From Paludibacteraceae bacterium (GTDB taxonomy: Bacteria > Bacteroidota > Bacteroidia > Bacteroidales > Paludibacteraceae), in contig JAXDTJ010000018.1 of assembly GCA_034090015.1 (NCBI GenBank), positions 41,740 to 105,739 on the forward strand: DNA of 64,000 nucleotides. The letters run 5' to 3'. Shown one piece after another: positions 11,672 to 41,128 of this stretch. The position numbers were made by a program, and so were the translations under genes. Under the pieces are notes generated by a model. That model was not told where the DNA came from. It worked only from the letters and a program-made list of their open reading frames with translations, and ran no database searches. The first letter of the stretch is position 1, and every line of letters starts with the position of its first letter.

Positions 11672-11683
11672 CTCAACATTCAC

Positions 11684-14348: not shown

Positions 14349-14464
14349 ATGTAAATTGGCAATTACACGTTAAATGTACTACATTACCTATCATACACGT
14401 CAATTAAACGTGAAATGTATCACACCTTGATTATATGTTAGAAGTTGATTTGCACCGATCTCCA

Positions 14465-16330
14465 ATGCGGCTCATCGCATTCTCCCTGCTGTTGCTGTTT
14501 TTCTCTTCGTGTGCCAACCGAGGGATTGGACCGCAGGGAGGACCCAAAGACACTATCCCCCCGCGGATGGTGAAAGAGCAACCGCTGAACCAGTCCGTCA
14601 ACTTCCACGGAAAGAAGATAGAAATCACCTTCAACGAGTATCTGCAACTCGATAACATCCAGCAGAATCTGCTTGTCTCTCCGCCGCAGCAAGTGTCTCC
14701 TATCGTGAAAGCCGTCGGCAAGAAAGTAACCGTGGAGATGCAGGAAGACCTCATCGACTCCACTACCTACACCCTTGACTTCGGCAACGCTATCTGCGAC
14801 TATACAGAGAAGAACCCCTTGCGCGGCTATGTGTTTGCCTTTTCCACAGGCGACCGCATTGACTCTATGGAGGTCTATGGGCGTGTTGCCAATGCCGAGG
14901 ACCTCAACCCCGTCTCGGGACTGATGGTCGGACTGCAAGCCAACCTCCATGATAGCGCTTTCTCCACCCTGCCTTTCACCCGCGTAGCGCGCTCCGACTC
15001 CTTGGGCGAGTTCGGTATTCAGAACCTGCGCAACGGCGTTTACCGTCTTTATGCCCTCCAAGACCAGAGCCGAGACTTCCTATACCAGCCCGGCGAGGGA
15101 CTGGCGTTCGCCGACTCACTCGTCATACCCGAATACGAGACAGAAATCGTCTTCGACACAATATGGAAAGAACTCGCCGATACCATCGATTCCCTCGCGT
15201 CGGTGCCACAAATCGACACCATCCTGACTATCCAAAACACCTATGTAGGCCCCGCGGACTTGCTGCTCTGGTTCTTCAAGGAAGACAAGCAACGCCACTA
15301 TTTCCAGCGTGTGTACCGCGATGAGCCGCATATCATCAAGTTGCAGTTCTCCGCGCCGCAAGACAGCCTCCCCGCTCTGCGCGCCTTGCCGCCCTCTGCC
15401 ATGGACTCCACGCGCGCCGACAGCCTGTGGACGGACCCGTGGGCATACACCCTCCTCCAAGCCAACCCCACGCGCGACACCCTCGTCTATTGGCTCACCG
15501 ACTCCATCGCCATCCGCCAAGACACCATCTATCTGGAGATGACTTACCTCAAGTCCGACTCCCTATATAACCTCGTGCCGCAGATCGATACCGTCTCCGC
15601 CATCTACCGTGCACCGCGCATGACCCAGAAAGCCAAAGAGGCGCAGGAGAAGAAAGCCCGCGAGCGCAAACTCGATCTCAAGAGCAATGCGAAAGACAAG
15701 TTCGAAGTGTACGACACGCTATGCGTCGTCTCTGCTTTCCCAATCGACTCTATCTACACCGACAGCATTCGCCTCTACGAGAAGCAAGACACCCTGCTCA
15801 TAGACAAGCCCTTCACGCTCTGCCAAAAGGATGTGATGAGTTTCCAAATCATCGCCCCCTTGCAGCAAGGTAAGCAGTATGAGTTGCACCTCGACTCTGC
15901 TGCTGTGCGCGACATCTATGGCGTGGCGAGCGACAAGAAGAAGTTCACGCTCAAACTGAAGACCGCCGAAGACTACTCCACTTTGCTCATCCGCCTGCCG
16001 GACTACGACCCGCGTATCCGCTTGCAGTTGCTCAGCGAGAAAGACCAGCCTGTGCGCGAGTTGCCTGCCCGCGAGGAGGGGACGAAGTTCGAGTACCTCG
16101 CTCCCAAGACCTATTACCTGCGCCTCTATTTCGACTTGAACGGCGACGGCAGGTGGACGACGGGCGACTGGGCGACTAAGCGACAACCCGAGCCGGTCTA
16201 TTATTTCCCTGCTAAACTCAGCCTGCGCGCCAACTGGGACTTCGAGGAGCGTTTCGACTACCTCGCCCGTCCCCAACTGGAAGCCAAGCCCCGCGAACTC
16301 CGCAAAGACGCCACTGCTACGAAGAAATAA
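14465..16330 (+). CDS. Ig-like domain lipoprotein, function unknown
   Basis: Lipoprotein signal MRLIAFSLLLLFFSSC from the ATG at 14465. The N-terminal DTIPP...ITFNEYL pattern is Big_5/SbsA-Ig-like. The rest is unassigned. Confidence 0.6.
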   Translation: MRLIAFSLLLLFFSSCANRGIGPQGGPKDTIPPRMVKEQPLNQSVNFHGKKIEITFNEYLQLDNIQQNLLVSPPQQVSPIVKAVGKKVTVEMQEDLIDSTTYTLDFGNAICDYTEKNPLRGYVFAFSTGDRIDSMEVYGRVANAEDLNPVSGLMVGLQANLHDSAFSTLPFTRVARSDSLGEFGIQNLRNGVYRLYALQDQSRDFLYQPGEGLAFADSLVIPEYETEIVFDTIWKELADTIDSLASVPQIDTILTIQNTYVGPADLLLWFFKEDKQRHYFQRVYRDEPHIIKLQFSAPQDSLPALRALPPSAMDSTRADSLWTDPWAYTLLQANPTRDTLVYWLTDSIAIRQDTIYLEMTYLKSDSLYNLVPQIDTVSAIYRAPRMTQKAKEAQEKKARERKLDLKSNAKDKFEVYDTLCVVSAFPIDSIYTDSIRLYEKQDTLLIDKPFTLCQKDVMSFQIIAPLQQGKQYELHLDSAAVRDIYGVASDKKKFTLKLKTAEDYSTLLIRLPDYDPRIRLQLLSEKDQPVRELPAREEGTKFEYLAPKTYYLRLYFDLNGDGRWTTGDWATKRQPEPVYYFPAKLSLRANWDFEERFDYLARPQLEAKPRELRKDATATKK

Positions 16331-17640: not shown

Positions 17641-17880
17641 GCGACTGTCAGACCGCTGTCCGACTGATTTACTGGGGACGCGGGCGGCTCGCCCGCGGGC
17701 CCGTCGGGCCCGAACAGCGGGTGTGGGCCATGTGATATCCTCCACGGCTTGCGCCTTGCCCGGGGGCGAGACGCCCGCGTCCCCAGTAAATCAGTCGTTC
17801 AGCGCAGCGGTCGGACAATGAAATGGTCCCGATAAATCGGGATGCAAGCATCTGACAGCGAAGCGGTCAGAAACATCTGT
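17641..17880. repeat. composite element: CAGACCGC-word palindrome with nested GC-rich MITE-like insert
   Basis: Perfect 25-bp inverted repeat GACTGATTTACTGGGGACGCGGGCG (17662-17686 / 17772-17796), flanked by GACCGC and GCGGTC words. Confidence 0.8.
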
Positions 17881-23263: not shown

Positions 23264-26200
23264 ATGAAAAACCGTTTATTCTTTTTATGCGTTGCCATGC
23301 TGGTGGCATGCGGCGTAACGATGGCTGACAACACTTGGTTTGAGGAGGGTCGTAACTTCTCTGCCTATTCTTTGGGTCAAGGCAAAGTGCATGTGAAGGT
23401 GCTGGTCTTTGCGAGAGGAGGTACGAATAACCACTGGGCAACGACGGGAAACGGCGGAAGCTTCGTCTATGCCTATTCCTCCGGAAATACAGTTTATGCG
23501 TTGCAGTACGAAGGCGATAATAATTACAACTGTGAGAACGACTACAAAGGTTGGGTGAAGTTTCAAGTGAAGAGCGGTACGGTGATTATTACCAATTCCT
23601 ACGGAGGCAACAACAGCACCACATACACTCCGAGCAACGGTTGGGTAAATCTATACCTATCGCGTACAGGAGAGAGCAACACCCCTACTTATTTGGAGTT
23701 CGACTGGTATCCGCCCACAGTCTTGGATAACAGGTCCTTCGACTTGAAAGCGACCATCACCGATACACGAAAGTATGGGGATACATGGACGCACACGTGG
23801 TACTTAGGCTCTTTCTCCGGCCTCTCTTTACAAGCGCCTATGCTCTATCAACCCGTGTTCTATAGCGTTGGAGAAGATGGTCAGCCGGGGCACGGACAAG
23901 TGGCTATTCCGTATGTGGTGTACCAAGAGCCGAAGAGTTACACCACCTCCACCACCGGCAATACTACCTTCATCTGCAAAGAGCGGACAGGTCAACTGCT
24001 GGCAAAGACCACCGACACGGTGCAGTATGGTTTTTCTGCCAACTTCACTGTCGTGCGCGAAGACAAGACCACCACGGTAGTAACTTCCAGCAAGGTGGAC
24101 ATCCCTGCGTTCCACCGTATCTATGATTTTAAAGCAGAACATTATGTACCGGAAGGTATGGATAGTATGTGGTATATAAAAACCAAGACCACCCTCAGTT
24201 GGAAGGTGCGGACACCCTGGGCAACCGATATCATGCCTATGGATATGTTCCAGATTCAGCGCGCCTACCATCCCGACTTCTCCGATGCCGAGACCCTCGC
24301 ACTCATCCCTTACGAGACAGGCAAGGGCACCTACCAGTGGGTGGACGACACAGAAGGGGCGATGAAAAACCTGAGAACGGATACTATTGACATGAATATC
24401 TACTATCGTGTAAACCGCGTCTCTACCACCAACTGGGGCTATGAAGGGCACGAGTGGGTGCGTACTACCGCCATCCGGAAAAACACCAGCTTAACGCATT
24501 TTGACTCCGATTATAGTAACTACCGCAAAGCAGACGATTTTCAAGAAACAAGGCGCGTGTTGTTTACATTAGAAACATTGACTGATCTAAACATGTCATA
24601 CTGTTGGGATGAGAGAGCCTCCATACGCGTACGCCGACTGGCTATCTCTGCCGTGGATACTATCATCACGGAGAGAGTATTCCCCGGCTCTATGGTGCGG
24701 CCCTTGCCCCCAGACCCCAAACGAGGCAACCCTTATTTCAGTACCCTCTACCGGTTTGACTTCGAAGATGTAGCAGACATCCCTTGTTGCCACTATGAGT
24801 ATGAGGTATATATAGACGACAGCCAAAGTCTGCTGAAGTTAGATGACTTGTACCACCGCTATCAAGAACCGCTGAAGTTAACCTCCTTAGACCTTTACTA
24901 CACCGATGCGGCTTCTATTGCTACCTTCCGCGTGTCGGACGGAGTCTATCCCGACCGTATCTTCCTGCAATGGAACCCAACATCAGGCAGCGTAGACTCC
25001 TTCTATGTATATCGGAGCACAGACCAGAGGCAAGGAGGCGAGGAGATTGCCCGCATCGCAGGACAGCACTATTATATAGACACGGATGTCGTCCCGGGCA
25101 CGGTTTACTACTATACCCTAATGGCGTCTTATCTTTGCGGCGGTACGCATCAGACGCAGTTTACCGAGCAAAAGAGAGGCAGTCTGTCGCCCTACGGATG
25201 CATCCGCGGGCGTATCACATACCCCAATGGCACCGGCAACGTCGGCGTAACAGTACGGGCTGAGGGTATAAGTGGAGATGTTGCTTCTATCACCCCCAAC
25301 TACCTCTATGCCGACTCCACACGCGTAGTATATAATAGTACGCAAGACCCCGTTTCCCTGAGCGGCGATTTCTCTATCCAGATGATGGTCAAAGACTCCG
25401 ACCTCACTATCGTTAGCGGTACCGGACACCCATTGCTATATAGCACCGATAGTACTTTCCGCCTCGAACTATCCGGCGAAACTATCCGCTTCACCATGGG
25501 CAACCAGACCAGACTACTCAGCCTACGTAACGAACACAGCCAAAACAACGATAACAACATTTTCTCCCTCACCCTCACCTACTGTGCCCACACCCAAACG
25601 GTAACCCTCTACCGCGATGAGCAACAGACCGCTACCGCCACTATCCCCCTGCACAACATCCATAGCCGCTTGCGCTTCTGCTGCCCCTACTCGCTCGCCC
25701 CCGTCTCTTCCTACGGCGTGGGCATTGATGAAGTGCGTATCTTCCACCGCGTGCTCTCACAAGACAACGTCCGCACATACTCGCGACATGCCTTGGCGGG
25801 AGACGAAAACGGACTGATACTCTACTACAAGTTCGACATGCTATCTTTATCTGATATCGCTATCCCCAATATAGCAAAGATGCAAGCCACGGACGGCAAC
25901 GGAATGATGGCAGCGAACAACGCACTCATTTGGGACAAGGCAAAAAATGATGATGATTACCGATATATCCACCTCCCGGGAGACCTCATCACGCGCTTCG
26001 AGGCACTCACCGACGAGAGCGGCAACTATGTCTTAGCGGGCATACCCTTTGCCAACGGCATTACTTACAGCCTTACCCCCACAGCCCAACACGGCACCTT
26101 CCGCTATAACGGCACATCCTCTGCTTCAGCCACCATCACGATTGGCAACACGCGCCCGGAAGCAACCGCTGTGGACTTCATGAACACCGATGCCGTGCGC

Positions 26201-29200
26201 TTCAGCGGCAGGATACTCTACGAACGCTCCACCATACCGGTGAAGGGCGTGCATTTCTTGGTGAACGGCATACTCGCCACCGATGCCACAGGCAACCCCG
26301 TCGAGACCAACGAGAGCGGTAACTTCCAGTTTGAATTGCCCAAAGCACCGATACGGGTGCAGGCTGTGAAAGACGGACACTGCTTTGCCAACGATGGATA
26401 CCTGATTCTCAACGGAGACACCCTCTTCCAACCTACCGACAACATCGATGCCATTCGCTTCTACGACCGAACGAAGGTACGCCTCATCGGGCGTATTGCC
26501 GGCGGTAACGACCAAGGACTACTCCCCTTAGGCTTCGGACTCAGCCGTAACAACCTCGGCGACCATATCTGCATGGTGCTGGAGTTAGAGGGCGACAACG
26601 CCGCGCAGATAGTCTTCGACCCCTTGGACAAGACCCTCAACCGCCTTGACACCACTATCGTCCATGCCATAGACACCACCCAACATACCGACATTTCCTT
26701 GCAGAGCAAGCGGATAATGATTTACCCCGACCCGGCTTCCGGAGAGTTCTTTGCCGACCTCTTCCCCGTGAAGTACAAAGTAACCCAACTGACCGCACAA
26801 GGCTATAGCACGCTCACCAACGAGAAGACCGCCATGCAGGTCATAGACCTCACCAACAAACTCGACAGCCAATACACCTATTATACTGACACCATTCAAG
26901 GAGGTGCGGTCTCCAGGCCGCACCAAGAGAACTATGACGAAACCATGGTGCGGTTAGGAGACCGCACCTCCTTGGCCTTCCACGACACCTTCCGACATAT
27001 CTACCATAGCCCCATCACCGTAACGCCCGTACAGAGCCTTTACGGCATGGAGGTGGGCTATTTCGGCGTCGAGCGTATCGCTGTGCAACGATGGGACGGA
27101 GAGTCGGAATCCCAGTCGGTAGCACTTGCCAAAGAAGACGGCACCTATGAATACCTCTTCGGAAAACCCATCTTCACCGAAGGCAAATACACCTTCAATA
27201 TCTACGCGCACGAGGACTATTACTATAATGGCGACCGCAACCTCGGCAAGCACGACCGCGTGATGCTCCACGAAGGCGAGGTGAAAATCTATAACGGCAT
27301 GCACTCCAACACAGAAGTGCTGACCGGGACGCTCGATAAAGACGGTGTCTGCCGCAACATGGTCCTCCGCGCGGATTATCCCACCTACACGCGCGTGGAC
27401 GAAGACGCTGCGCGAAACATACAGGTTACTGTAACCTACGAGCGTGAATCCCATACTACCGAGCCTTTGCGGGTGCTGGTATTCGCCGACCGACGAGAGG
27501 GAACAGAGGCAATATCCTCCACCACGGCAGACATCACACTCTACGATATCCTGCGCGACCCGCCCGGCTCCGGCAGTTTCGCTACACTCAGCGCAGGAGC
27601 ATCATACTCCGCATCGAAAACATGGGCGTTATCCGTCAAAGCGGGTGTCACACTCGAGTTCGAAAAAGGAGTAAAATATGCCGGATTTGTGGGAGCGGTT
27701 ACTGCCGTCCCGGGACTGCTATCAGCGCAAAACTATAACATAAACACAACCACACCATTCAGCATTCCGCTGGTGTATAATTATTCCATCAACAAAGATT
27801 ATAGTTATTCCTATTCCACCACCGAGACCATACGAACGGGTAGTGATGCCTACCATGTAGGTGCAAAAGCGGACATATTCATGGGGGCAGTGGAGAATCT
27901 CTATATATCTACTTGCCACGGTATGGCTGTGCTGGACTCGCTGACCTATCTATCGATGGCTGCGCAGAAGGAGAACGGCACCATGCGGCATATCGCTACC
28001 GCACGAAATCTACAAGGTGAACTACGCCACCTCGTGGTAGCGCCTAAACTCACCTTAGACATGGTGCAGGATGCCACTTTCTGCTACACCCAAGAGCACA
28101 TCCTCACCACCGTGATTCCCAAACTGGTAGCCCAACGCAATGCCTTGGTGCTTTGCGTGGACTCAGCGGCGGCAAGAGCAAAAGCCAATCAAGAGAAAAA
28201 GCGTATCTACTACACTACGATGAGCCCTGATAGTGCCGACTTCGCAATAACACGCGGGAAAGGGTACGACTTTGTTGACCCCGTAAATAATACCGATAAT
28301 ACACCCGAGGCGGATAAAGTAGCCGGTATCAACCGTGCCATCCTCGCTTGGACCAACCTGATAAAACAAAACGAGAAGGAGAAGGTCAATGCACAATATA
28401 CCACCGACAAAAAAACATATTCCGTGGCAGGTGGCTCTACGCTTACCTATTCCGAAACGGTAACTTACGGCAGCAAATATAACGAAATACCCTTCAACTT
28501 GGGCGGTTCTGCCGGAGCAAGCAATCTGAGCAATCTATGGGGAAACGCCATCAACAAAACCATACAGACGCTTCTACAGGTAGGTGGAAAGGCTGATTCT
28601 ATCACCATTGAGAGCGAAGCGCCGGGCAGCAAGTTCTCCTTCAGTTTGAAACCCATTGCCAATATAAGCACCCAACCAACTTACGCCGCCTCCGAACAGA
28701 AGTCGCGCACCTATGGTTATACGCTATCCCCAGACCGGTTCGGATATATGGATGTGCAAGTAATGCGCATGAAAGACACGATAAGCGATTTCTACCAAAA
28801 CGCGGAGGATACCCTTGCGTTAACAGGAGAGAAAGCCAATGGTAAACTGCAAAGTTACAGCAGTTTCATCTTCCGCCAGTTGGCAGGTGCCAGCCGCTGC
28901 CCGTGGGAGGATGCCGACTCCACACTCTTCTACCAGCCCGGCACGCCGCTGAGCATTGCCACCGCGCGCTTGGAAAACCCGCAGATAACCATCGCCCAAC
29001 GCGAGATAAGTAATGTGCCTGCCGACCAACGCGCCATCTTCCAAATCGCCCTCAACAACGAGCAGACCTACTACACGGGCATAGGTGCAGCCACCCTGCC
29101 CTTTGAACTGTCGGTTATGCCGGGTAGCAACCCCAACGGACTCAAGATAACCATAGACGGCCAACCCCTCACCTCGGATCCTTTATCCATCACTCTCCCG

Positions 29201-32200
29201 CACGGCACTACGATCCACAAGACCATAGAGGTGGAGCGCGGACAGGGTTACGACTTCGAGGACATCACGCTCCTCCTGCGCTCTACCTGCGATATCATGG
29301 AGTATGCCCTCGCCGCCTTCTCCGTCCATTTCGTACCTGCCGCCACCCCTGTCTCCATGCCTACCCCGCATGACCAATGGGTGCTTAACACGCAGTCCGC
29401 ACGCGACTCCGCAGGCTACTACCTACCCGTCTCCATCGACGGCTTCGACATCCACTCCGACGGCTTCGACCATATCGAGTTGCAGTACAAGCCCCACACC
29501 GCCTCCGATGCTGATTGGGTGAACATCTGCTCCTACTACGTCTCCGACAGCCTCTACGAGCAGGCATCGGGCACCAAGCAGCGTATCGCGGGCAGCAAGA
29601 TAGACAACATCCGTTTCTACGGCGGGCGCGACCCCATGGAGCAGGAGTACGACCTCCGTGCTATGGCGTTCGCACGCTACGGCAACGGCTTCGTTACTCG
29701 CGCCTCGGAGGTGCTCCACGGCGTGAAAGACACACGCCGACCCGAACTCTTCGGCACCCCAACGCCTGCCGACGGCATACTTTCCGTAGGCGATGTGCTC
29801 TCGCTGCGTTTCAGCGAACCCATTGCAGGAAACCTATTGGACGAGGATGTTAATTTCGAGGTGATTGGTACGGATGATGTTCTCTCACTCACCACCTCCC
29901 TCCATTTCACAGGCGAATTCTCTTGCTACGCCCGCACAAAGGTTACCCGCAACATGAACGCCCGACCCTTCACCATTGAGGCAATGATTAAACCTACCGG
30001 AAATGCAGCCTTGCAAACCATCTTCGCGCTGGACAACGAGAAAGAGCCTCTGTGGTTCGCATGGGCGGGAGACCATCTCGAAGCACAGATAGGAAAAGTG
30101 CGACTGCAATCCGCCACCGTAGAGCCTATCCTCGACTTCACACGAGTAGCACTTACCTACAACCTGGAGGACTCTATTGCCCGATTCTTTGTTGGAACAC
30201 AAGAGATTAATTATGAATTAAGAATTAAGAATTATGAGCATTCCGAGCACTCCGATAACTCCGAACACTCCGATTACTCAGCAACCAACGCGAAGCCGTC
30301 GTACCATAGTGCTGCTCAACTGATTTGGGGTAACAATGCTACTTATGATGCTCCCTTCCAAGGGGATATGTTGGAAGCACGACTATGGACGAAAGCACTC
30401 ACGCAAGCCGAGTTGGCGCGGTATAAAGACTGCCATCTGACGGGCTACGAGCGCGAACTGGTGGCATATTACCCGATGAACGAAGGGAAAGGCACTACTT
30501 GCGAGGACAAAGCCAATGGTGCCACCCTCACCCTTAACGGCACCTCGTGGGTACTGCCCGAAGGTATGTCTATCCACTTGAACGGCGCAGAGCCTATCTG
30601 TCTCAACGGCGACCTGCTCAGCCGCTCCGACATCGAAGACCTGACCCTGCTCTTCTCCTTCAAGGCAGACGAAAACCTCGCTGATACATCTGAACTCCTG
30701 CATGCAGGCAAGCATACCATGCACCTTACCTCGGATGCCTTGCTATGGAGAACCGACAGCACCGAACGCCGTGCACCGGGGGCTTTTGCAGATGCTCAGT
30801 GGCACCAGTTGGTGGTGGCTATTGACCGCACGAGGAATATAGCCTCTCTGCTTGTGGATGGCAACACACTGCTTGCCACAGCGGCTGACGACATACCCGC
30901 CTTCGCAGACAGTGTCTGGACACTGGGGCAGTCTTTCCGAGGACATATCGATGCTTTCACGCTCTTCGAACAGGCATTGCCTACCTATGTGATAGAACGC
31001 TACAACAATCTCGCACCGCAAGGAGACGAGATGGGACTTATCGCATATATGCCTTTCGGGCAGTATATCCTCCAACCCAACGGACGCTACGAGTTAGTCT
31101 ATTCGCCGGAGAACGCCCGTATCTTCCGCGATGCCGACGGGAATACGGTAGAGAAGCACCAAAAGCTGGTGATGAACAACCTCACACGCTACACCGATAA
31201 AAAGGATTTTGCACCCTTGCGTAATGGGAATGCCCGAAAGAAACTTAACTTCTCGTGGGCAAGCAATGGCGATGAACTGATGATAAACATCAACATGCCC
31301 GACCATGAGATTAACCATCGCAACCTGCTCCTGACGGTGCAGCGCGTGGAGGACCAACATGGCAACGCCATGCTCAGCCCCCACACATGGGCGGCTTATG
31401 TGCACCGGCAGCAACTGCGTTGGGACAACCCGCAGATTAACTATGAGCAACAGGTTCCTGGTTCCGAGTCTCAGGTTTCAAGTGCGCAGCCTTACACCTT
31501 CACCGCCACCATCCGCAACCACGGTGGTACTACGCGGGAGTATCATCTTAACTCCCTTCCCTCGTGGCTCACGGCGCAGCCGGCTTCCGGATTCCTTGCG
31601 CCGCTGGAGACGCAGACCATCACCTTCACTGTGGACGAAGGGCTGAACATCGGCGAATATACCGAGTATATCTACCTGACCGACGACCAACAGTTGGACG
31701 ACCGCTTGTTGCTCAACCTGCACATAAAAGCCACCTGCCCTTGGACACTCGACCAGACGGAACTCAACCGCTCCATGTCGCTAATCGGGCAGGTACAAAT
31801 ACCCGTCGAGAACGGTACAATACAAATAGATACCGACTCACAGGATATGGTGGCAGCCTTCGTTGGCGAGCAGTGCGTGGCTTTGGCTCCCGTGCGGCTG
31901 AATCAGCAGACAAAGCCGGTTACCTACATGACCATCTACGGTAACGATAGCCATGCAGGCAAGGCGCTACGCTTCCAACTCTGGCATGCCAAGAACGGCA
32001 AGGTCTATATCCTTGCCCCGAGCGAAGACATCCCCTTCCGCGCCAACGAATGTTATGGCTGCGAGGGTACACCCATCACGCTCACCGTGACCGACCGACA
32101 GGTGCAACTGCTCACGCTGCAGCCCGGGTGGAATTGGTTCAGCCTGTATCTCAAGCCCACCTATCGCTCGGACCTCACGCGCCTCTTCTGTTCATCCGAC

Positions 32201-33334
32201 GCATGGACGAACGGCGACATCATCAAGAACCCCGAAGAGCAATACTTCGCAGAATATCAGATGAATACCTCGCCAATTCGATGGTATGGTACCCTATCCA
32301 CGATACGGTACCGCAGCATTTTCTTGGCGCATGTGTCGAATCCTATTCTACTGCAGATTGAGGGCGACCGTTTGGACGATGAGGGACGCACGCTCACGCT
32401 TGAGCAGGGGTGGAACGTAATGCCCTATCTCCTGACAGAGAAGCAGTCGCTCACCGACGCCTTGGCTGACTACTACGACGATGCCTCCGAGGGCGACCTC
32501 ATCAAGAGTCGCGATGCCTTTGCTGTCTTCTCCCACGCAGGCAAGTGGGAAGGCAACCTCACATATATGCAACCCGGGCTGGGGTACATGCTCCGCCGCC
32601 TCGCACCCGACCCCTGTACCTTCACTTACTATACTTATAACCCGTTGGAACAAGGGACAGGAAGCCAGGAGTCAAGAATTAATTATGAATTAAGAATTAA
32701 GAAAAAATCGTTCGAGCGTAGCGGAGATAAGAATTATGAGGGCAACGCAAACAACGTAAACAACGCAAACAACGCAAACAACGCGCAGCCTTACACCTCT
32801 GCCACTACCATGTCGCTCATTGCCACGGTGGAATTGGAGCCGGGAGTCAAGAACCAAGAACAAAGACTAAATGGTTCCAACGATGAGATTGCAGAAACGA
32901 AGGTAATAAGTCTTTCATCCTGTGTCCTTTGTCCTTCATCCAATGAAAGCCTTACCCTCGCTGCTTATATCGGCAACAGGCTTGTGGGGGTCGGTTATCC
33001 GCAGCAGGTAGGGACAACGACAGAAGACGCTATCTTCTTCCTATCTATCGCCGATGGCGCAGAGGTGGCAAGTGGGCAGTGGCCAGTGGCCAGTGGTCAG
33101 GAGGTTAGTGGTCAGATACGCTTTGTCCTTCTCTGCAACGGCGAGCCGGTGGCACACGGCACCCAGACCTTGCCTTATCAACAAGATACGGTGGTGGGTA
33201 CCCTACGCAAACCCTATCGTATCACATTCCATACCATAGACGATATGCAAGACAAGCCGTATAAGATATTGGAAAATCAACAAATATACATTATTCGCAA
33301 TGAAAACAAATATAATATCCTTGGCGTTCATTAG
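23264..33334 (+). CDS. giant (3356 aa) secreted surface protein with FN3-like, carboxypeptidase-regulatory-like and three LamG (laminin-G_3) domains
   Basis: Signal peptide MKNRLFFLCVAMLVACGVTMA. FN3-like FLQWNPTSGSVDSFYVYRS. LamG endings IDEVRIFHRVLSQDNV, LEARLWTKALTQAEL and IDAFTLFEQALP. The frame is uninterrupted for 10 kb. Confidence 0.85.
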   Translation: MKNRLFFLCVAMLVACGVTMADNTWFEEGRNFSAYSLGQGKVHVKVLVFARGGTNNHWATTGNGGSFVYAYSSGNTVYALQYEGDNNYNCENDYKGWVKFQVKSGTVIITNSYGGNNSTTYTPSNGWVNLYLSRTGESNTPTYLEFDWYPPTVLDNRSFDLKATITDTRKYGDTWTHTWYLGSFSGLSLQAPMLYQPVFYSVGEDGQPGHGQVAIPYVVYQEPKSYTTSTTGNTTFICKERTGQLLAKTTDTVQYGFSANFTVVREDKTTTVVTSSKVDIPAFHRIYDFKAEHYVPEGMDSMWYIKTKTTLSWKVRTPWATDIMPMDMFQIQRAYHPDFSDAETLALIPYETGKGTYQWVDDTEGAMKNLRTDTIDMNIYYRVNRVSTTNWGYEGHEWVRTTAIRKNTSLTHFDSDYSNYRKADDFQETRRVLFTLETLTDLNMSYCWDERASIRVRRLAISAVDTIITERVFPGSMVRPLPPDPKRGNPYFSTLYRFDFEDVADIPCCHYEYEVYIDDSQSLLKLDDLYHRYQEPLKLTSLDLYYTDAASIATFRVSDGVYPDRIFLQWNPTSGSVDSFYVYRSTDQRQGGEEIARIAGQHYYIDTDVVPGTVYYYTLMASYLCGGTHQTQFTEQKRGSLSPYGCIRGRITYPNGTGNVGVTVRAEGISGDVASITPNYLYADSTRVVYNSTQDPVSLSGDFSIQMMVKDSDLTIVSGTGHPLLYSTDSTFRLELSGETIRFTMGNQTRLLSLRNEHSQNNDNNIFSLTLTYCAHTQTVTLYRDEQQTATATIPLHNIHSRLRFCCPYSLAPVSSYGVGIDEVRIFHRVLSQDNVRTYSRHALAGDENGLILYYKFDMLSLSDIAIPNIAKMQATDGNGMMAANNALIWDKAKNDDDYRYIHLPGDLITRFEALTDESGNYVLAGIPFANGITYSLTPTAQHGTFRYNGTSSASATITIGNTRPEATAVDFMNTDAVRFSGRILYERSTIPVKGVHFLVNGILATDATGNPVETNESGNFQFELPKAPIRVQAVKDGHCFANDGYLILNGDTLFQPTDNIDAIRFYDRTKVRLIGRIAGGNDQGLLPLGFGLSRNNLGDHICMVLELEGDNAAQIVFDPLDKTLNRLDTTIVHAIDTTQHTDISLQSKRIMIYPDPASGEFFADLFPVKYKVTQLTAQGYSTLTNEKTAMQVIDLTNKLDSQYTYYTDTIQGGAVSRPHQENYDETMVRLGDRTSLAFHDTFRHIYHSPITVTPVQSLYGMEVGYFGVERIAVQRWDGESESQSVALAKEDGTYEYLFGKPIFTEGKYTFNIYAHEDYYYNGDRNLGKHDRVMLHEGEVKIYNGMHSNTEVLTGTLDKDGVCRNMVLRADYPTYTRVDEDAARNIQVTVTYERESHTTEPLRVLVFADRREGTEAISSTTADITLYDILRDPPGSGSFATLSAGASYSASKTWALSVKAGVTLEFEKGVKYAGFVGAVTAVPGLLSAQNYNINTTTPFSIPLVYNYSINKDYSYSYSTTETIRTGSDAYHVGAKADIFMGAVENLYISTCHGMAVLDSLTYLSMAAQKENGTMRHIATARNLQGELRHLVVAPKLTLDMVQDATFCYTQEHILTTVIPKLVAQRNALVLCVDSAAARAKANQEKKRIYYTTMSPDSADFAITRGKGYDFVDPVNNTDNTPEADKVAGINRAILAWTNLIKQNEKEKVNAQYTTDKKTYSVAGGSTLTYSETVTYGSKYNEIPFNLGGSAGASNLSNLWGNAINKTIQTLLQVGGKADSITIESEAPGSKFSFSLKPIANISTQPTYAASEQKSRTYGYTLSPDRFGYMDVQVMRMKDTISDFYQNAEDTLALTGEKANGKLQSYSSFIFRQLAGASRCPWEDADSTLFYQPGTPLSIATARLENPQITIAQREISNVPADQRAIFQIALNNEQTYYTGIGAATLPFELSVMPGSNPNGLKITIDGQPLTSDPLSITLPHGTTIHKTIEVERGQGYDFEDITLLLRSTCDIMEYALAAFSVHFVPAATPVSMPTPHDQWVLNTQSARDSAGYYLPVSIDGFDIHSDGFDHIELQYKPHTASDADWVNICSYYVSDSLYEQASGTKQRIAGSKIDNIRFYGGRDPMEQEYDLRAMAFARYGNGFVTRASEVLHGVKDTRRPELFGTPTPADGILSVGDVLSLRFSEPIAGNLLDEDVNFEVIGTDDVLSLTTSLHFTGEFSCYARTKVTRNMNARPFTIEAMIKPTGNAALQTIFALDNEKEPLWFAWAGDHLEAQIGKVRLQSATVEPILDFTRVALTYNLEDSIARFFVGTQEINYELRIKNYEHSEHSDNSEHSDYSATNAKPSYHSAAQLIWGNNATYDAPFQGDMLEARLWTKALTQAELARYKDCHLTGYERELVAYYPMNEGKGTTCEDKANGATLTLNGTSWVLPEGMSIHLNGAEPICLNGDLLSRSDIEDLTLLFSFKADENLADTSELLHAGKHTMHLTSDALLWRTDSTERRAPGAFADAQWHQLVVAIDRTRNIASLLVDGNTLLATAADDIPAFADSVWTLGQSFRGHIDAFTLFEQALPTYVIERYNNLAPQGDEMGLIAYMPFGQYILQPNGRYELVYSPENARIFRDADGNTVEKHQKLVMNNLTRYTDKKDFAPLRNGNARKKLNFSWASNGDELMININMPDHEINHRNLLLTVQRVEDQHGNAMLSPHTWAAYVHRQQLRWDNPQINYEQQVPGSESQVSSAQPYTFTATIRNHGGTTREYHLNSLPSWLTAQPASGFLAPLETQTITFTVDEGLNIGEYTEYIYLTDDQQLDDRLLLNLHIKATCPWTLDQTELNRSMSLIGQVQIPVENGTIQIDTDSQDMVAAFVGEQCVALAPVRLNQQTKPVTYMTIYGNDSHAGKALRFQLWHAKNGKVYILAPSEDIPFRANECYGCEGTPITLTVTDRQVQLLTLQPGWNWFSLYLKPTYRSDLTRLFCSSDAWTNGDIIKNPEEQYFAEYQMNTSPIRWYGTLSTIRYRSIFLAHVSNPILLQIEGDRLDDEGRTLTLEQGWNVMPYLLTEKQSLTDALADYYDDASEGDLIKSRDAFAVFSHAGKWEGNLTYMQPGLGYMLRRLAPDPCTFTYYTYNPLEQGTGSQESRINYELRIKKKSFERSGDKNYEGNANNVNNANNANNAQPYTSATTMSLIATVELEPGVKNQEQRLNGSNDEIAETKVISLSSCVLCPSSNESLTLAAYIGNRLVGVGYPQQVGTTTEDAIFFLSIADGAEVASGQWPVASGQEVSGQIRFVLLCNGEPVAHGTQTLPYQQDTVVGTLRKPYRITFHTIDDMQDKPYKILENQQIYIIRNENKYNILGVH
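26897..26974. repeat. 78-nt palindromic element in-frame in giant ORF
   Basis: Arms GGAGGTGCGGTCTCCAGGCCGCACC / GGTGCGGTTAGGAGACCGCACCTCC. The left arm is identical to 62935-62959. Confidence 0.85.
30206..30280. repeat. TTAAGAATTATGA words + CACTCCGA words in-frame in giant ORF (LamG domain 2)
   Basis: ATTAATTATGAATTAAGAATTAAGAATTATGAG, then GAGCACTCCGATAACTCCGAACACTCCGATTACTC. Confidence 0.85.
32666..33115. repeat. cluster of five different word-repeat families in-frame in the giant ORF 3' region
   Basis: Five families are present: TTAAGAATT words (32675-32705); CAACGCAAA x~5 (32744-32786); AAGAACC words (32846-32865); the AAGGTAATAAGTCTTTCATCC... copy of the 58204 repeat (32897-32945); and CAGTGGC words (33070-33115). 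Confidence 0.85.
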
Positions 33335-34061: not shown

Positions 34062-34071
34062 TCGCCCCAAT

Positions 34072-34336
34072 AAATTTACGAATTACGATTTACGAATTAC
34101 GATTTTCCGTTAAAGACCATTAAAAGACCATTAAAAGTTTAAGTTATACTCCGTTAATTGCCGTTAATTATTCGTTAATTTTTTTGCCTCCATTAAAGAC
34201 CATTAAAGGTTCATTAAAGGCAAAGTTTTAATGGTTCTTTAATGGGCTTTAACGGAGAAAACAAAAAGAAATTAATGAATAATTAACGGTCATTAACGGA
34301 GAACGAAAATAATTAACGGGCATTAACGGAAAACGA
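34072..34336. repeat. word-repeat leader of polyamine operon (CGTAAAT, CCATTAAAG, CCGTTAAT words) with nested inverted repeats
   Basis: 34150-34182 is a near-perfect complement of 34270-34301. The inner pair is 34190-34220 / 34226-34247. Confidence 0.8.
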
Positions 34337-34340: not shown

Positions 34341-35228
34341 ATGGAGAATTTTGCCGGATTAAGCGGGCGTTGGGCGGACGAAAAGACCGCGCGGATAGTG
34401 GTGTTGCCTGTGCCTTATGACAAGACGAGTTCGTGGGTACACGGTGCGGAGAAGGGACCGGAAGCCTTCTTGGAGGCGAGCGTGCAGTTGGAGTGGCTGG
34501 ACACGGAGACGCGGACGGAGGTCTATCGTCAGGGTATCCATACCGCCGCGCCCGTAACGGAAGACCGCACGCCGGCGTTGCTATGCGAGGCGGTGGAAGA
34601 ACGCATGGGGGCACTATGGGACGCGGGGAAGTTCCCCTGCATGATAGGCGGCAACCACACGGTGTCTATCGGTGCTTGCCGCGCGGCGGCGAAGCGTTTT
34701 GAGGGGCTGACGGTGCTGCAATTAGACGCACACAGCGACCTGCGACCCGAATACGAGGGGTCGGAGTTGAACCACGCCTGCATCATGAAAGAGGCGCAGA
34801 AAGTGGCGAAGACGGTGCAGGTGGGGATCCGCAGCCAGTGCGTAGAAGAGGCGGAGAACGCTGCGAAGAGCACGATTATATGGGCGCGCGAGATATGGGA
34901 AGACGAGACCTTCGGGCAGCGACCTGCCTCGGCGAGCGAGAGTTGGGCGTGGGAGAAGCGGGTATATGATGCGCTGACGGAGAATGTGTATCTGACCATC
35001 GACCTCGATGTGTTCGACCCTGCTTATCTGCCCTCTACGGGTACGCCGGAGCCCGGGGGCATGGGCTACTATCAGGTGCTGCACCTGCTGCGACCTGTGT
35101 TCGAGCGATACAACGTGGTGGGGTTTGATATCGTGGAACTCTGTCCGAGCCCGACCCGCCAAGCGCATGCGTCGCAGTACCTCGCCGCACGGCTGGCATA
35201 TCAGTTGATGACATACAAATTTATTTGA
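34341..35228 (+). CDS. speB: agmatinase (arginase/ureohydrolase family)
   Basis: GGNHTVSIG, LDAHSDL and DLDVFDP Mn-binding motifs, in a polyamine gene context. Confidence 0.85.
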   Translation: MENFAGLSGRWADEKTARIVVLPVPYDKTSSWVHGAEKGPEAFLEASVQLEWLDTETRTEVYRQGIHTAAPVTEDRTPALLCEAVEERMGALWDAGKFPCMIGGNHTVSIGACRAAAKRFEGLTVLQLDAHSDLRPEYEGSELNHACIMKEAQKVAKTVQVGIRSQCVEEAENAAKSTIIWAREIWEDETFGQRPASASESWAWEKRVYDALTENVYLTIDLDVFDPAYLPSTGTPEPGGMGYYQVLHLLRPVFERYNVVGFDIVELCPSPTRQAHASQYLAARLAYQLMTYKFI

Positions 35229-35305
35229 CAATTGGACAATTTACAATTTGACAATTATGCGCCGCATGGCTAATTGTAAAATTGTCAATTGTAAAATTGT
35301 AAAAT
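35224..35305. repeat. GACAATTT-word hairpin between speB and nspC
   Basis: Loop TGCGCCGCATGGC. The speB TGA lies inside the first word. Confidence 0.85.
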
Positions 35306-35311
35306 GATACC

Positions 35312-36553
35312 ATGTTTCCCAATCCTTGCTACATAGTGGAAGAGCGGCTTCTGCACCGTAACCTCGCGCTGATAAAGCGCGTGGCGGATGAGACGGGCGT
35401 GGAGATAATCTTGGCATTCAAGGCGTTTGCGCTTTGGAAGACTTTCCCTATCTTCCGTGAGTATATTCAGCATACCACGGCTTCGAGTGTCTATGAGGCG
35501 CGGCTGGCATACGAGCAATTCGGTGCCCCCGCGCACACCTATAGCCCCGCCTACACGGAGGAGAACTTCCCCGAGTTTCTGCGGTATTCGAGCCATATCA
35601 CGTTCAATAGTTTGAGTCAGTGGGAGAGATTTGGAAGGATCCAAGAACCAAGAACCGAGAACCAAGAGGGGAGAGTCTCTTTCGGCATACGTATTAACCC
35701 TGAGTATTCGGAGATAGAGACCTTGCTCTACAATCCTACGGCGCCCGGGTCGCGGTTTGGCGTGCTGGCGGAGCAGTTGGAGACCTATTGCGAGGCGCGT
35801 GGCGGGAGGCTGCCCGAAGGATTGGAGGGCTTTCATTGCCACTGCCATTGCGAGGATGATTCCTACACTTTCGAGCGGACGCTGCAACACATAGAGGCGA
35901 AGTTCGGCAAGTGGTTCCCGCAGTTGCAATGGCTCAACCTCGGCGGCGGGCACCTGATGACCCGCAAGGACTACGATGTGGAGCATCTGATAGGGTTGCT
36001 CAAAGGACTGCGCAGCCGCTATCCGCACCTGAAGATACTGCTTGAGCCCGGCAGCGCGTTTGCTTGGCAGACGGGTGTGCTGACGAGCAAGGTGGTGGAT
36101 ATCGTGGAGAACCACGGTATACGGACGGCAATACTGAACGTGTCGTTTGCCTGCCACATGCCCGACACGCTGGAGATGCCCTATCAACCGGCAGTGAGGG
36201 GAGCAAGACCCACCCCTCCCCTCCCTGAAGCCACCCCACTACGCGTTGCTTGTGGGGACCCCGGAAAGGGAGGGAGTGAAGACCCCCGCGAGGTAGGGAG
36301 TGAAGAGGGGTATCGGTATCGCCTTGGGGGCAATAGTTGTCTGTCGGGGGACTGGATAGGCGATTGGGTGTTTGACCACGAGTTGCAGATTGGGGAGGAG
36401 ATAATCTTTGAGGATATGATTCACTACACCACGGTGAAGACGCACATGTTCAACGGCATTGCTCATCCCTCGCTGGGAATACGCCGCGAAGACGGCACGG
36501 AGGAAGTGCTCCGCACATTTGATTACGAAGATTACTTGAATAGGATGGACTGA
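35312..36553 (+). CDS. nspC: carboxynorspermidine/carboxyspermidine decarboxylase
   Basis: N-terminus PCYIVEERLLHRNLALIK...ILAFKAF (PLP Lys), then LGG.SCLSGD and HYTTVKTHMFNG blocks. It carries two repeat-derived in-frame inserts. Confidence 0.85.
   Translation: MFPNPCYIVEERLLHRNLALIKRVADETGVEIILAFKAFALWKTFPIFREYIQHTTASSVYEARLAYEQFGAPAHTYSPAYTEENFPEFLRYSSHITFNSLSQWERFGRIQEPRTENQEGRVSFGIRINPEYSEIETLLYNPTAPGSRFGVLAEQLETYCEARGGRLPEGLEGFHCHCHCEDDSYTFERTLQHIEAKFGKWFPQLQWLNLGGGHLMTRKDYDVEHLIGLLKGLRSRYPHLKILLEPGSAFAWQTGVLTSKVVDIVENHGIRTAILNVSFACHMPDTLEMPYQPAVRGARPTPPLPEATPLRVACGDPGKGGSEDPREVGSEEGYRYRLGGNSCLSGDWIGDWVFDHELQIGEEIIFEDMIHYTTVKTHMFNGIAHPSLGIRREDGTEEVLRTFDYEDYLNRMD
35637..35671. repeat. 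AAGAACC words in-frame in nspC
   Basis: GGATCCAAGAACCAAGAACCGAGAACCAAGAGGGG. The same word occurs at 32846. Confidence 0.75.
36205..36312. repeat. GC-rich repeat block in-frame in nspC
   Basis: Contains CACCCCACTACGCGTTGCTTGTGGGGACCCCGG, which matches 38593-38630 (CACCCCACTGCGCGTTGCTTGCGGGGACCCCGC). Confidence 0.8.
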
Positions 36554-38710: not shown

Positions 38711-39964
38711 ATGAATCGAGTATTATTGATTGGCTGTGGAGGTGTAGGCACCGTGGCAGCCCACAAGTTGGCTCAGAATCCCGATGTGTTCGGTGAGATT
38801 TGTATCGCGAGCCGCACCAAGTCGAAATGTGATGCGACGGCGGAGGCTATCCGCGCGAAGCACTACACGAAGAACGGCTTGCAGTCTGTCATCACCACCG
38901 CGCAAGTGGATGCCGACGATGTGGCAGCGCTGGTGGCGCTGATGAAGGAGTACAAGCCCGCACTGTGTATCAACCTTGCACTTCCCTACCAAGACCTGAC
39001 CATCATGGACGCTTGTCTGGAAGCAGGGGTGCACTACATGGACACCGCCAACTACGAGCCGAAAGATGAGGCGCACTTTGAGTATTCATGGCAGTGGGCT
39101 TATCGCGAGCGTTTTGAGAAAGCAGGGCTCTGCGCGCTGCTCGGCTGCGGCTTCGACCCGGGCGTAACCTCCATCTTCACTGCCTATGCGGCGAAGCACT
39201 ACTTCAAGGAGATTCACTACCTCGACATCGTGGACTGCAACGCGGGCAACCATCACAAAGCATTCGCCACCAACTTCAACCCCGAAATCAACATCCGCGA
39301 GATTACCCAAAAGGGACTCTACTGGGAGAACGGCGCTTACCACGAGACGGAGCCGATGGAGATTCACAAGACGCTCCACTATCCGAATATCGGTCCGAAG
39401 GAGAGTTACCTGCTCCACCACGAGGAGATAGAGTCGCTCGTCATCAACTACCCGACCATCAAGCGTGCGCGCTTCTGGATGACCTTCGGACAGCAGTATC
39501 TGAACTACCTCGACGTGATTCAGAACATCGGCATGGCGCGTATCGATGAGATAGAGTACAAAGCGCCGAAAGCCGATGGCACGGGCGATGAAGTGGTGAA
39601 GATAGTGCCCTTGCAGTTCCTGAAAGCCGTGCTGCCGAACCCCAAGGAGTTGGGCGAGAACTACGACGGCGAGACCTCTATCGGTTGCCGTATCCGCGGC
39701 ATCGGCAACGACGGGCAGGAGCACACCTACTATGTCTGGAACAACTGCTCCCACCGTGCTGCTTACGAGGAGACGGGCATGCAGGGCGTCAGTTACACCA
39801 CGGGCGTGCCGGCGATGATTGGCGCGATGATGATGCTCACGGGCAAGTGGCTCCGCGCGGGTGTGCACAACGTGGAAGAGTTCGACCCCGATCCCTTCAT
39901 GGAGATGCTCAACGTCCACGGACTGCCCTGGCACGAGGAGCACGACGGAGATTTGGAACTGTAA
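38711..39964 (+). CDS. carboxynorspermidine/carboxyspermidine dehydrogenase (saccharopine dehydrogenase family)
   Basis: VLLIGCGGVGTVAAHKL Rossmann start, ~415 aa, clustered with nspC/speA/speB. Confidence 0.85.
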   Translation: MNRVLLIGCGGVGTVAAHKLAQNPDVFGEICIASRTKSKCDATAEAIRAKHYTKNGLQSVITTAQVDADDVAALVALMKEYKPALCINLALPYQDLTIMDACLEAGVHYMDTANYEPKDEAHFEYSWQWAYRERFEKAGLCALLGCGFDPGVTSIFTAYAAKHYFKEIHYLDIVDCNAGNHHKAFATNFNPEINIREITQKGLYWENGAYHETEPMEIHKTLHYPNIGPKESYLLHHEEIESLVINYPTIKRARFWMTFGQQYLNYLDVIQNIGMARIDEIEYKAPKADGTGDEVVKIVPLQFLKAVLPNPKELGENYDGETSIGCRIRGIGNDGQEHTYYVWNNCSHRAAYEETGMQGVSYTTGVPAMIGAMMMLTGKWLRAGVHNVEEFDPDPFMEMLNVHGLPWHEEHDGDLEL

Positions 39965-39966
39965 AA

Positions 39967-40063
39967 ACAATTTGAAAGTTAACAATTTGAAAATTTGAAA
40001 ATGACGATGCAGAATTAATCATTTTCAAATTTTCAAATTTACAAATTTACAAATTTTCAAATT
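39967..40063. repeat. TTTGAAAA-word hairpin between dehydrogenase and GT2 genes
   Basis: TTTGAAAATTTGAAAATGA - loop - TCATTTTCAAATTTTCAAA... Confidence 0.85.
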
Positions 40064-40071: not shown

Positions 40072-41028
40072 ATGGATATATCAATTATTGTTCCCTTGTA
40101 CAACGAGGCAGAGTCGCTGCCGAAACTCTATGAATGGATAGTGCGCGTGATGAAAGAGCACGGGTACACCTATGAGATACTGTTTGTGAACGATGGCAGT
40201 ACGGATGCGTCGTGGCAAGTGATAGAAGACCTCGCCAAATCAGCAGCGGAAGGCACTGTGCACGGTATCTCTTTCCGCCGCAATTACGGCAAGTCGGCTG
40301 CTCTCTACTGCGGCTTCCAAGCCGCACAAGGCGAGGTCGTCATCACGATGGATGCCGACCTGCAAGACTCGCCCGACGAGATACCCGAACTCTATCGCAT
40401 GATTACCGAGGACGGTTTCGACCTCGTGAGCGGCTGGAAACAAAAACGCTATGATAACAAACTGACCAAGAACTTGCCGAGCAAACTCTTCAACGCGACG
40501 GCTCGGCGGGTTACCGGTATTGCGCTCCACGACATGAACTGCGGGCTGAAAGCCTATCGGCAGGAGGTAGTGAAGAACATCGAGGTCTTCTCGGAGATGC
40601 ACCGCTATATCCCGTACCTCGCTAAGAATGCGGGATTCACCAAGATTGGCGAGAAAGTGGTGCAACATCGCAAGCGTGAGTTCGGGGTATCGAAGTTCGG
40701 GTTGAGCCGCTTCGTGAACGGCTACCTCGACCTACTCACGCTGTGGTTCCTCAATAAGTTCGGCAAGCAGCCCATGCACTTCTTCGGGCTAATTGGCAGC
40801 CTGATGTTCTTCATCGGACTGGTGGCGGTGATAGTGGTAGCGGGAATGAAAGTGCATGCGCTGGCAAACGGTATTCCCGCCATGCTGATAGGCGTCAATC
40901 CCTACTTCCACATCGCCATCCTGATGATGATTCTCGGCTGCATGCTCTTCCTCGCAGGTTTCTTAGGCGAACTCATCATCCGCAACTCCGGCGAACGCAA
41001 CAACTACCTGATTGGGAAAAGAATATAA
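40072..41028 (+). CDS. family 2 glycosyltransferase (polyprenyl-phosphate sugar transferase-like, two C-terminal TM helices)
   Basis: ISIIVPLYNE, VNDGSTD and TMDADLQD motifs. The C-terminus is hydrophobic. Confidence 0.85.
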   Translation: MDISIIVPLYNEAESLPKLYEWIVRVMKEHGYTYEILFVNDGSTDASWQVIEDLAKSAAEGTVHGISFRRNYGKSAALYCGFQAAQGEVVITMDADLQDSPDEIPELYRMITEDGFDLVSGWKQKRYDNKLTKNLPSKLFNATARRVTGIALHDMNCGLKAYRQEVVKNIEVFSEMHRYIPYLAKNAGFTKIGEKVVQHRKREFGVSKFGLSRFVNGYLDLLTLWFLNKFGKQPMHFFGLIGSLMFFIGLVAVIVVAGMKVHALANGIPAMLIGVNPYFHIAILMMILGCMLFLAGFLGELIIRNSGERNNYLIGKRI

Positions 41029-41128
41029 CATTTGACAATTTGACAATTTACTATTTTACAATTAACCATGCGGCGCATAGTTGTCAAATTGTAAATTGTC
41101 AAATAGTCAAATAGTAAATTGTCAAATA
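41029..41128. repeat. GACAATTT-word hairpin between GT2 and hypothetical gene (inverted copy of the 35224 family)
   Basis: The loop CCATGCGGCGCATAG is the reverse complement of the 35258 loop. Confidence 0.85.

Follow-up and report, generated by a model that had tools for sequence, protein, structure and literature searches.

An in-frame REP doublet in a giant protein gene of an uncultured Paludibacteraceae bacterium, and its probable place in a RAYT-associated repeat family

The doublet and the solo unit in the window

The window, by which we mean the whole stretch of Paludibacteraceae DNA analysed here (64 000 nt), contains a 78-nt palindromic element within the open reading frame of a giant protein, and one arm of that element recurs behind rimM. 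The features considered in the following are these.

23264–33334, plus strand: host gene of the doublet, encoding 3356 aa, with a LamG domain
26897–26974, no strand assigned: REPIN, made up of two REP hairpin units in tail-to-tail inversion and the spacer between them; 78 nt = 26 codons, in frame
26900–26924, plus strand: left REP unit, canonical; the GGAGG tag overlaps a stem of 7 bp, GGTGCGG/CCGCACC, that closes an 8-nt loop; read as GGAVSRPH
26925–26946, plus strand: doublet spacer AAGAGAACTATGACGAAACCAT, 22 nt
26947–26971, minus strand: right REP unit, inverted, with three adjacent changes in the loop (AGG to TAA, as read on the strand of the unit)
62413–62913, plus strand: rimM, upstream of the solo REP unit, with both RimM Pfam domains
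62935–62959, plus strand: solo REP unit (singlet), extragenic, 3' of rimM and oriented as the flanking genes

A search of the window found the 25-mer GGAGGTGCGGTCTCCAGGCCGCACC exactly at 26900–26924 and at 62935–62959, both on the plus strand, and a minus-strand copy with three mismatches at 26947–26971, while no matches would be expected by chance as judged from 100 dinucleotide-preserving shuffles. An earlier, sequence-only reading of this DNA had claimed precisely such a 25/25 identity, together with a reverse-complementary partner arm having two to three mismatches and a complementarity reaching into CAAGG/CCTTG. All of this held, the arms at 26897–26925 and 26946–26974 being 29 nt each, 90% complementary and 20 nt apart. 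It was also right in taking the element as 26 codons in frame with the giant ORF, where it is read as QGGAVSRPHQENYDETMVRLGDRTSL, corresponding to residues 1212–1237 of the 3356-aa protein. What that reading did not include is that each arm is by itself a hairpin unit (REP), so that the 78-mer is a REP doublet (REPIN). The stems are unbroken in all three window copies (GGTGCGG-N8-CCGCACC), and the mismatches of the right unit, being consecutive, are confined to the hairpin loop; this unit encodes (M)VRLGDRTS, the usual reading being MVRPGDRTS. The 98-nt surround of the element (26887–26984) folds with −56.6 kcal/mol (z = −9.3), and the reverse complement of the spacer, ATGGTTTCGTCATAGTTCTCTT, is similar to the weakly conserved ATGGTATC...TCTTCTT spacers of other doublets. 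No direct (target-site) duplication was found at the window doublet. The 25-mer is free of stop codons in all six frames, and the 78-mer is open in only two of the six; we rejected the notion that openness in all six frames is an adaptation, as 52% of shuffled versions of the 25-mer were equally stop-free.

The solo copy begins 21 nt past the stop codon of an ORF that was correctly named as rimM in the earlier reading, and lies 61 nt ahead of the ORF that follows, which starts at 63021 and encodes a SpoU methylase. The copy with its flanks (62932–62961) and the right arm of the doublet are 87% complementary. As an extragenic REP singlet lying 3' of a gene, the copy is of the ordinary kind. Its possible role as an intrinsic terminator was rejected, because the hairpin lacks a T-run and was not flagged in a terminator scan. 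At gathering thresholds, no Rfam family was detected in the whole window, and the element had no match in the phage and plasmid collections. A literature search using the element sequence gave unrelated primer and guide-sequence matches only, with no paper naming the sequence.

The repeat family and its location within genes

Using GGAGGTGCGGTCTCCNNNCCGCACC as query against one genome per species, a family scan returned at least 105 stretches, and among the matches listed all of them were in seven Paludibacteraceae/Bacteroidales MAGs, half coming from the genome LOHA15_bin.007. The 25-mer is hence not limited to the two window sites, and the dispersed, palindromic and probably mobile nature of the element, implicit in the sequence-only reading, was borne out. 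Among the matches listed there were 199 copies at up to four mismatches, 134 of which are identical to the left window unit, the sampled loci of LOHA15_bin.007 contributing at least 119 copies and the six other MAGs 4–26 each. The window's own genome, sampled as 64 kb, gave three units, and the family may be a fossil there. A unit is 25–33 nt long with the consensus (tc)AA-GGAGGTGCGG-TCTCCAGG-CCGCACC-AT(ag), in which the first three bases, GGA, are invariant across the 199 copies among the matches listed and the flank consensus is weak (tcAA before the unit, ATAg after it).

The polarity of paired copies is fixed. Close pairs within 200 nt comprised 22 with tags outward and tails facing (+−) and none of the opposite kind (−+) among the matches listed, the start-to-start spacing of the +− pairs being 47 nt in nine, 50 nt in five, 52 nt in four, 61 nt in two, and other values in the remainder; the 47-nt spacing and the polarity are those of the window doublet, which thus has eight counterparts in the related genomes. 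Spacers of doublets vary in both length and sequence although they are loosely alike, direct tandem copies are spaced mostly by multiples of three, and 120 of the 199 copies among the matches listed are isolated singlets. Covariation in the hairpin was of one compensatory type, T-A to G-C, seen in three variants and four copies of a sample that is biased by the search pattern, and is weakly suggestive of maintenance of the hairpin.

Most copies lie within genes. Among the matches listed, 146 of 199 (≈73%) fall in stop-free frames of at least 200 codons, compared with 81% for random positions in the same DNA, and when host frames were sampled at random, 16 of 20 encoded Pfam domains in frame with the repeat. 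In several hosts such domains flank the repeat on both sides (Dxs, RecQ, CobW, ABC-F), and other hosts include 3-dehydroquinate synthase (aroB), a CCA-adding-type enzyme, RibF, a TonB-dependent receptor, a PPIase and a subtilase. The intragenic copies use all six frames. Isolated intragenic singlets show a strong frame bias (10, 23 and 7 on one strand; 7, 26 and 5 on the other), which speaks for translation of the inserts and for selection acting on the resulting peptides; the singlets show no strand bias relative to the host gene (40 versus 38). The window doublet has no stop codon in the frame used and a length that is a multiple of three. Because the 3356-codon frame is intact and because intragenic copies are biased in reading frame, we infer that the doublet is translated as 26 extra residues.

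It could be argued that the insert never reaches the protein. The RAYT transposase treated below might excise it precisely from the DNA of some members of the population, or it might be taken out of the RNA, and the 26 residues would then be absent from the mature protein. The very stable hairpin would be a possible processing substrate, and enzymes of the IS200/IS605 type do excise seamlessly. Removal would, however, tolerate stop codons and frameshifts, yet the 3356-codon frame is intact, the net insert lengths given below are multiples of three and the frames of intragenic copies are strongly biased, so that we consider this possibility to be very unlikely. Another view would be that the repeat exists at the protein level, with a peptide module GGAVSRPH...MVRPGDRTS having been selected in surface proteins and the DNA palindrome being a by-product. 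The intragenic doublets do nearly always read GGAVSRPH-x6-8-TMVRPGDRTS, but any doublet of 72 or 75 nt gives such a common peptide automatically, owing to its palindromic symmetry. Moreover, the same DNA is read in six frames to give six unrelated peptides, it is also present in intergenic copies, and its hosts include the cytoplasmic enzymes Dxs, AroB, RecQ and RibF. Selection on a peptide module is thereby an exceedingly improbable origin of the repeat.

The insertion site and filled and empty sites in orthologues

The giant protein is a surface protein of LamG type and has a signal-peptide-like N terminus in addition to its LamG domain. It has 77 relatives, most of about 3100–3300 aa, several of which are named Paludibacteraceae and some of which carry PF18962, the sorting domain of type IX secretion. 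When the 22 closest homologues were aligned, the insertion site proved to be an indel hotspot, with nothing at the site in homologues that are 45–50% identical and with differing inserts in closer ones. As the earlier suggestion of a presence/absence polymorphism would have it, the homologous giant genes are mostly without the segment, which is present in one of the 22 (P0008, locus L107).

Comparison at the DNA level found the same doublet at the same position in L107, an A-rich 72-nt segment in its place in L106 (P0001), another GC-rich hairpin-like insert in L108 and L110, a short version in L109 and none in L111. L107 is about 75% identical to the window across much of the giant gene. L106 has 96–99% nucleotide identity to the window along the gene save at the doublet site, and the site is therefore polymorphic between very close strains. 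The boundaries of the window site are blurred, with remodelled neighbouring codons and with another insert in the nearest strain, and no truly empty allele of the window insertion was found, every close orthologue having either another insert or remodelled codons. For the local polymorphism at this site, recombination between alleles would be as good an explanation as transposition; an L107-like donor was considered in particular and rejected, sliding identity giving no local signal of such an exchange. The window insertion is probably old, being shared with the L107 lineage and, as it appears, replaced in L106.

An AlphaFold model of 300 residues around the site has the insert at segment residues 133–158 as coil, with pLDDT below 50 over segment residues 128–155 and strands at 124–129 and 155–160. 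The doublet is thus predicted to sit in a hypervariable, disordered loop between two beta-strands. Peptides spanning the junctions of the predicted insert-bearing protein include GGAVSRPHQENYDETMVR and IQGGAVSRPHQENYDETMVR.

Sites elsewhere were found in both filled and empty states. The orthologue of the giant gene in LOHA15 (L029) has a doublet at another site (window ≈29994–30012) that five orthologues including the window lack (+87 nt). In L082 the doublet is a clean insertion of about 81 nt compared with L012, centred in another palindromic repeat, and this clean filled/empty pair shows no target-site duplication. A singlet in L072 adds 48 nt inside the orthologue of window ORF 1637–2164, and the L049 orthologue of window ORF 14435–16330 has a hairpin-repeat composite of about 240 nt compared with 30 nt in the window. 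At the sites compared, each net gain in length is divisible by three: +48, +87 and, against L106, +27. As judged from these orthologue alignments, whole doublets were shown to come and go as units at orthologous sites without target-site duplication.

A RAYT-type transposase and comparison with known systems

No RAYT is encoded within the 64-kb window. A six-frame motif search of the repeat-bearing loci found one HUH...Y protein adjoining the repeat, in locus L002 of the sister genome LOHA15_bin.007, at 2360–3013 on the minus strand. The protein has a Y1_Tnp domain (Pfam E = 2.9e-12), and among NCBIfam models 'REP-associated tyrosine transposase' fits it best, with 65.5 bits, the equivalog cut-off lying higher, at 80. 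Both the HUH motif (NHVH) and the catalytic Tyr motif (YIQHNP) are intact, and there is weak similarity to solved IS200-type transposases as well as to E. coli TnpA_REP; the motifs NHVH, WQ and YIQHNP fit class 2 of the Quentin 2018 scheme and do not separate subclasses 2.4, 2.6 and 2.7. Five units of the window family lie upstream of this gene and three downstream, in tandems ending in tail-to-tail doublets. With tblastn of the REP-bearing loci a RAYT was found in L002 only, plus the separately fetched L112 and L113, and pairing of a RAYT with the exact 25-mer was seen at one locus (L002).

This has a bearing on whether the element would be a classical MITE, i.e. a deletion derivative of an IS whose 29-nt arms would be terminal inverted repeats for a DDE transposase. 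The ends of a MITE are inverted repeats that match a DDE transposase, and its insertion duplicates the target site. The size of 78 nt and the 29-nt inverted arms match that outline, and like Correia/NEMIS, RUP and ERIC the repeat is small, non-autonomous, palindromic, dispersed and sometimes located in or overlapping genes. Unlike those, the family shows neither DDE-matched termini nor target-site duplication, neither at the L082/L012 pair nor at the window site. Each arm is a self-contained hairpin that also occurs solo (120 of 199 copies among the matches listed) and in direct tandem, the spacers are uniform neither in length nor in sequence, an IS ending in this way was not seen, and the sole transposase found adjoining the repeat is an HUH/Y1 enzyme. 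A MITE is accordingly a highly doubtful description of the 78-mer.

The closest relative of the RAYT that we found, in L112, is 51% identical and has on both sides doublets of the form CAAGGAGG-TGGGGCG-TCC-CGCCCCA-CC. More distant relatives numbered 80 from metagenomes, and none above 48% identity was found there. Perfect hairpins with the GGAGG tag, having other stems, flank such relatives in L115, L117, L118, L124, L158 and L172, the number observed being 44 versus 8.35 in shuffles (maximum 13). The tag being common to the hairpins of seven RAYT relatives, GGAGG appears as the counterpart of the classical GTAG, going with the transposase clade. In Bacteroidetes, RAYTs whose flanking structures are atypical have been described (PMC6006769). 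On these sequence comparisons, and beyond what the earlier reading contained, the repeat family is tied to a RAYT-type transposase and is mostly intragenic; from this we infer, as is customary in the field for associations of this kind, that the RAYT probably mobilises the repeat.

Alternatively, the repeat might not be mobile and might have a function, for instance as a protein binding site or as a signal for the stability or processing of RNA. Selection would then preserve it, recombination and gene conversion would spread or homogenise it, and the nearby RAYT would be incidental. The 134 identical 25-mers (among the matches listed) in seven species-level genomes imply strong conservation, the solo copy lies just past a stop codon, where REPs with proposed RNA roles sit, and the polymorphism at the window site resembles allele replacement. 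A signal acting in the transcript is nonetheless hard to fit with copies in six frames of unrelated genes and equally on both strands, and whole doublets are found at sites that are empty in five orthologues. The tag furthermore co-varies with the transposase clade, and the repeat has neither an Rfam family nor a terminator-like T-run. We hold a non-mobile motif to be unlikely.

The reading that we favour, and that we believe to be well supported, is that the 78-mer is a REPIN of a dispersed, RAYT-associated, REP-type repeat family in an uncultured Paludibacteraceae clade, present as an in-frame loop insert. The RAYT would bind the tagged hairpin in single-stranded DNA and then cut and rejoin it, and would in this way copy or move singlets and doublets. 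Such action has been proposed for the classical REP/REPIN-RAYT systems and shown for IS200/IS605 transposases. A doublet landing in a disordered loop and adding whole codons without a stop would simply be translated.

REP/REPIN systems with a RAYT (TnpA_REP) occur in E. coli, Pseudomonas and Stenotrophomonas, and were reportedly described by Nunvar in 2010 and by Bertels & Rainey in 2011; Di Nocera et al. 2013 also treat them. The window family is like them in being a GC-rich hairpin of 25–33 nt with a short conserved 5' tag, in having singlets, tandem clusters and inverted doublets of fixed polarity, in lacking target-site duplications, in flanking a single class 2 HUH/Y1 gene (L002, in the sister genome) and in having its solo window copy just 3' of a gene. 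It differs in that the tag is GGAGG (5' end GGAG(G)) rather than GTAG or CGTC, that about three quarters of the copies, including the window doublet, are intragenic, that the RAYT lacks its own stop codon and forms part of the reading frame of an MmeI-type restriction-modification gene, and that the host is an uncultured Bacteroidales lineage.

REPs are otherwise the textbook extragenic repeat, and to our knowledge palindromes in frame within genes have mainly been a Rickettsia curiosity without a known mobilising enzyme. The Rickettsia element RPE-1, reportedly described by Ogata et al. in 2000/2002, is said to be an in-frame, translated palindrome of about 100–150 nt that is found in unrelated genes, tolerated in surface-exposed loops and confined to Rickettsia, and we know of no transposase assigned to it. 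The window family resembles the RPEs in being inserted in frame in functional protein genes, whereas its unit length of 25–33 nt and its Paludibacteraceae/Bacteroidales hosts among the matches listed set it apart from RPE-1; it works like the RPEs without being the same family. Intragenic REPs have been described in Opitutus terrae (GTAG), in Rickettsia conorii (CGTC = RPE-4 and RPE-6) and in other species, more than half of the intragenic inserts being dimers or groups that encode 20–30 residues, and different REPs may hold about the same site in orthologous genes (PMC3733652). The tail-to-tail dimers with variable spacers described there for REP families are likewise found in the window family, and the intragenic dimers of that study (Di Nocera et al. 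2013, PMC3733652) are of similar size to the window insert (26 residues). Intragenic copies are a minority of each family in that study, most REPs there being intergenic, in contrast to their majority in the window family. In-frame REP doublets are thus already known, and what is new here is the family, the tag, the extent of its location in coding sequence and the gene organisation of the transposase.

The family would decorate both essential enzymes and surface proteins with 8–30 extra residues while being physically tied to a RAYT, which suggests how a defined transposase may bring about innovation in protein sequences, through the insertion of palindromes, in abundant uncultured gut Bacteroidales. 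Because of these repeats, surface proteins differ in length between strains; the repeats are also convenient strain markers and can lead gene calling and assembly astray. We tentatively raise the further possibility that the GGAGG-tagged REP/RAYT clade, instead of being extragenic, is a lineage that invades genes. The REPINs of this clade would then enter coding loops at near random-position frequency, its REPIN-RAYT-REPIN cassettes would lie in frame within genes (dnaE, priA, a DinG/XPD-like helicase and MmeI/Eco57I-type genes), with the transposase translated as an unspliced insert of the host protein, and the window 78-mer would be one footprint of this process.

There are also observations on the genes that surround the transposases. 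We found no description of an in-frame, host-gene-embedded HUH transposase in the literature searched, and Pfam detected no intein-like domain in the frames with embedded RAYT cassettes, which are without their own stop codon. In L002 the RAYT and its flanking repeats lie inside a single frame of 1314 codons that is otherwise a complete MmeI-type restriction-modification gene, and the MmeI-type gene of L100, being 93–97% identical to that of L002, is without the cassette and has another hairpin repeat there. Among 49 RAYT relatives with enough flanking sequence, 21 lie within much longer frames, the Pfam domains found in the same frame being those of PriA, DnaE, Eco57I/MmeI-type methylases, a DinG/XPD-like helicase and DUF1156. 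In both of the loci that were checked for this (L116 and L166), REPIN copies were present on both sides of the RAYT.

RAYT domains within host genes

In L002, a locus from LOHA15_bin.007, the domain of the REP-associated HUH/Y1 tyrosine transposase (RAYT) and its flanking REP clusters were found in frame within a complete MmeI-type gene, inside its methyltransferase domain, with the embedded RAYT having no stop codon of its own and with a third REP cluster close to the C terminus of the gene product.

L002 (JBJECI010000112.1) 784-4726 (-): RAYT-bearing MmeI-type restriction-modification gene

The MmeI-type gene of the related locus L100 was 93-97% identical to that of L002 and lacked the RAYT cassette, with a second hairpin family occupying the site of the cassette.

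Long reading frames enclosing RAYT relatives were found at 21 of 49 loci, and no intein domain was detected by Pfam. The RAYT relatives of L116, L120, L125, L148, L166 and L179 lay inside such frames with same-frame host domains on both sides, and in L116 and L166 copies of the REPIN (a tail-to-tail inverted doublet of REP units) flanked the RAYT on either side.

near 2501-3100 in most of these loci: RAYT match
1154-1747 in L116: RAYT match

The surrounding host domains included PriA, DnaE (with the RAYT separating the finger domain from the HhH domain), DUF1156, a DinG/XPD-like helicase and methylases of the Eco57I/MmeI type.

Hairpin repeats and their insertion sites

The second hairpin-repeat family, having the structure ACTGGGGA-CGCGGGCG-TCT-CGCCCGCG-G, was also present in the window.

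17671-17698 (+) / 17760-17787 (-): second-family doublet, intergenic
63390-63417 (+): second-family singlet, in frame in the SpoU-methylase ORF 63021-63620

This singlet was translated as ITGDAGVSPAV, and at many related loci peptides of this family (TGDAGVSPA, AGETPASP) recurred adjoining the main family.

At L082 4178-4254 a REPIN was cleanly inserted at the centre of another palindromic element, GATGAAGGA...TCCTTCATC, as compared with the empty site at about 6053-6072 of L012; we speculate that extrusion of the palindrome would leave its loop single-stranded and so favourable to an HUH enzyme. L107, the contig sharing the REPIN of the window, carried two additional insertions (1125-1201 and 4274-4298), one being a doublet within the acyltransferase gene upstream of the giant gene and the other a variant unit, compensated as GGTGCTG...CAGCACC, at a different position in the giant gene.

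In all copies of the main family, the conserved tag AAGGAGGTG (window 26897-26905) matches the Shine-Dalgarno consensus in full, and the opposite arm terminates in CACCTCCTT (26966-26974), the 16S rRNA 3'-end sequence. Shine-Dalgarno pairing is little used by Bacteroidota, and selection to keep motifs of this kind out of genes might be weaker as a result.

Tandem repeats and base composition of the window

Nearly all intergenic regions of the window were filled by tandem 7-8-nt repeats, often in palindromic arrangement, with motifs such as AATTAAG/AATTATG, TTTGACAA and CTCTCAA. Some were also present in frame within the giant ORF, translated for example as INYELRIKNYEHSEHSD, and window positions 32844-32943 were an inverted match to 58201-58300.

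11576-11692, 34066-34304, 35221-35320, 39962-40063, 41015-41129, 63632-63750: intergenic examples
30201-30239, 32673-32711, 32834-32943: inside the giant ORF

Between about 42000 and 54000 the G+C content fell to 41-48%, from about 52-57%, and this block, which may be a foreign island, held very large ORFs.

42729-46379: very large ORF
46379-52351: very large ORF
52464-54872: very large ORF, with internal repeats of period about 290 nt at 52698-53413
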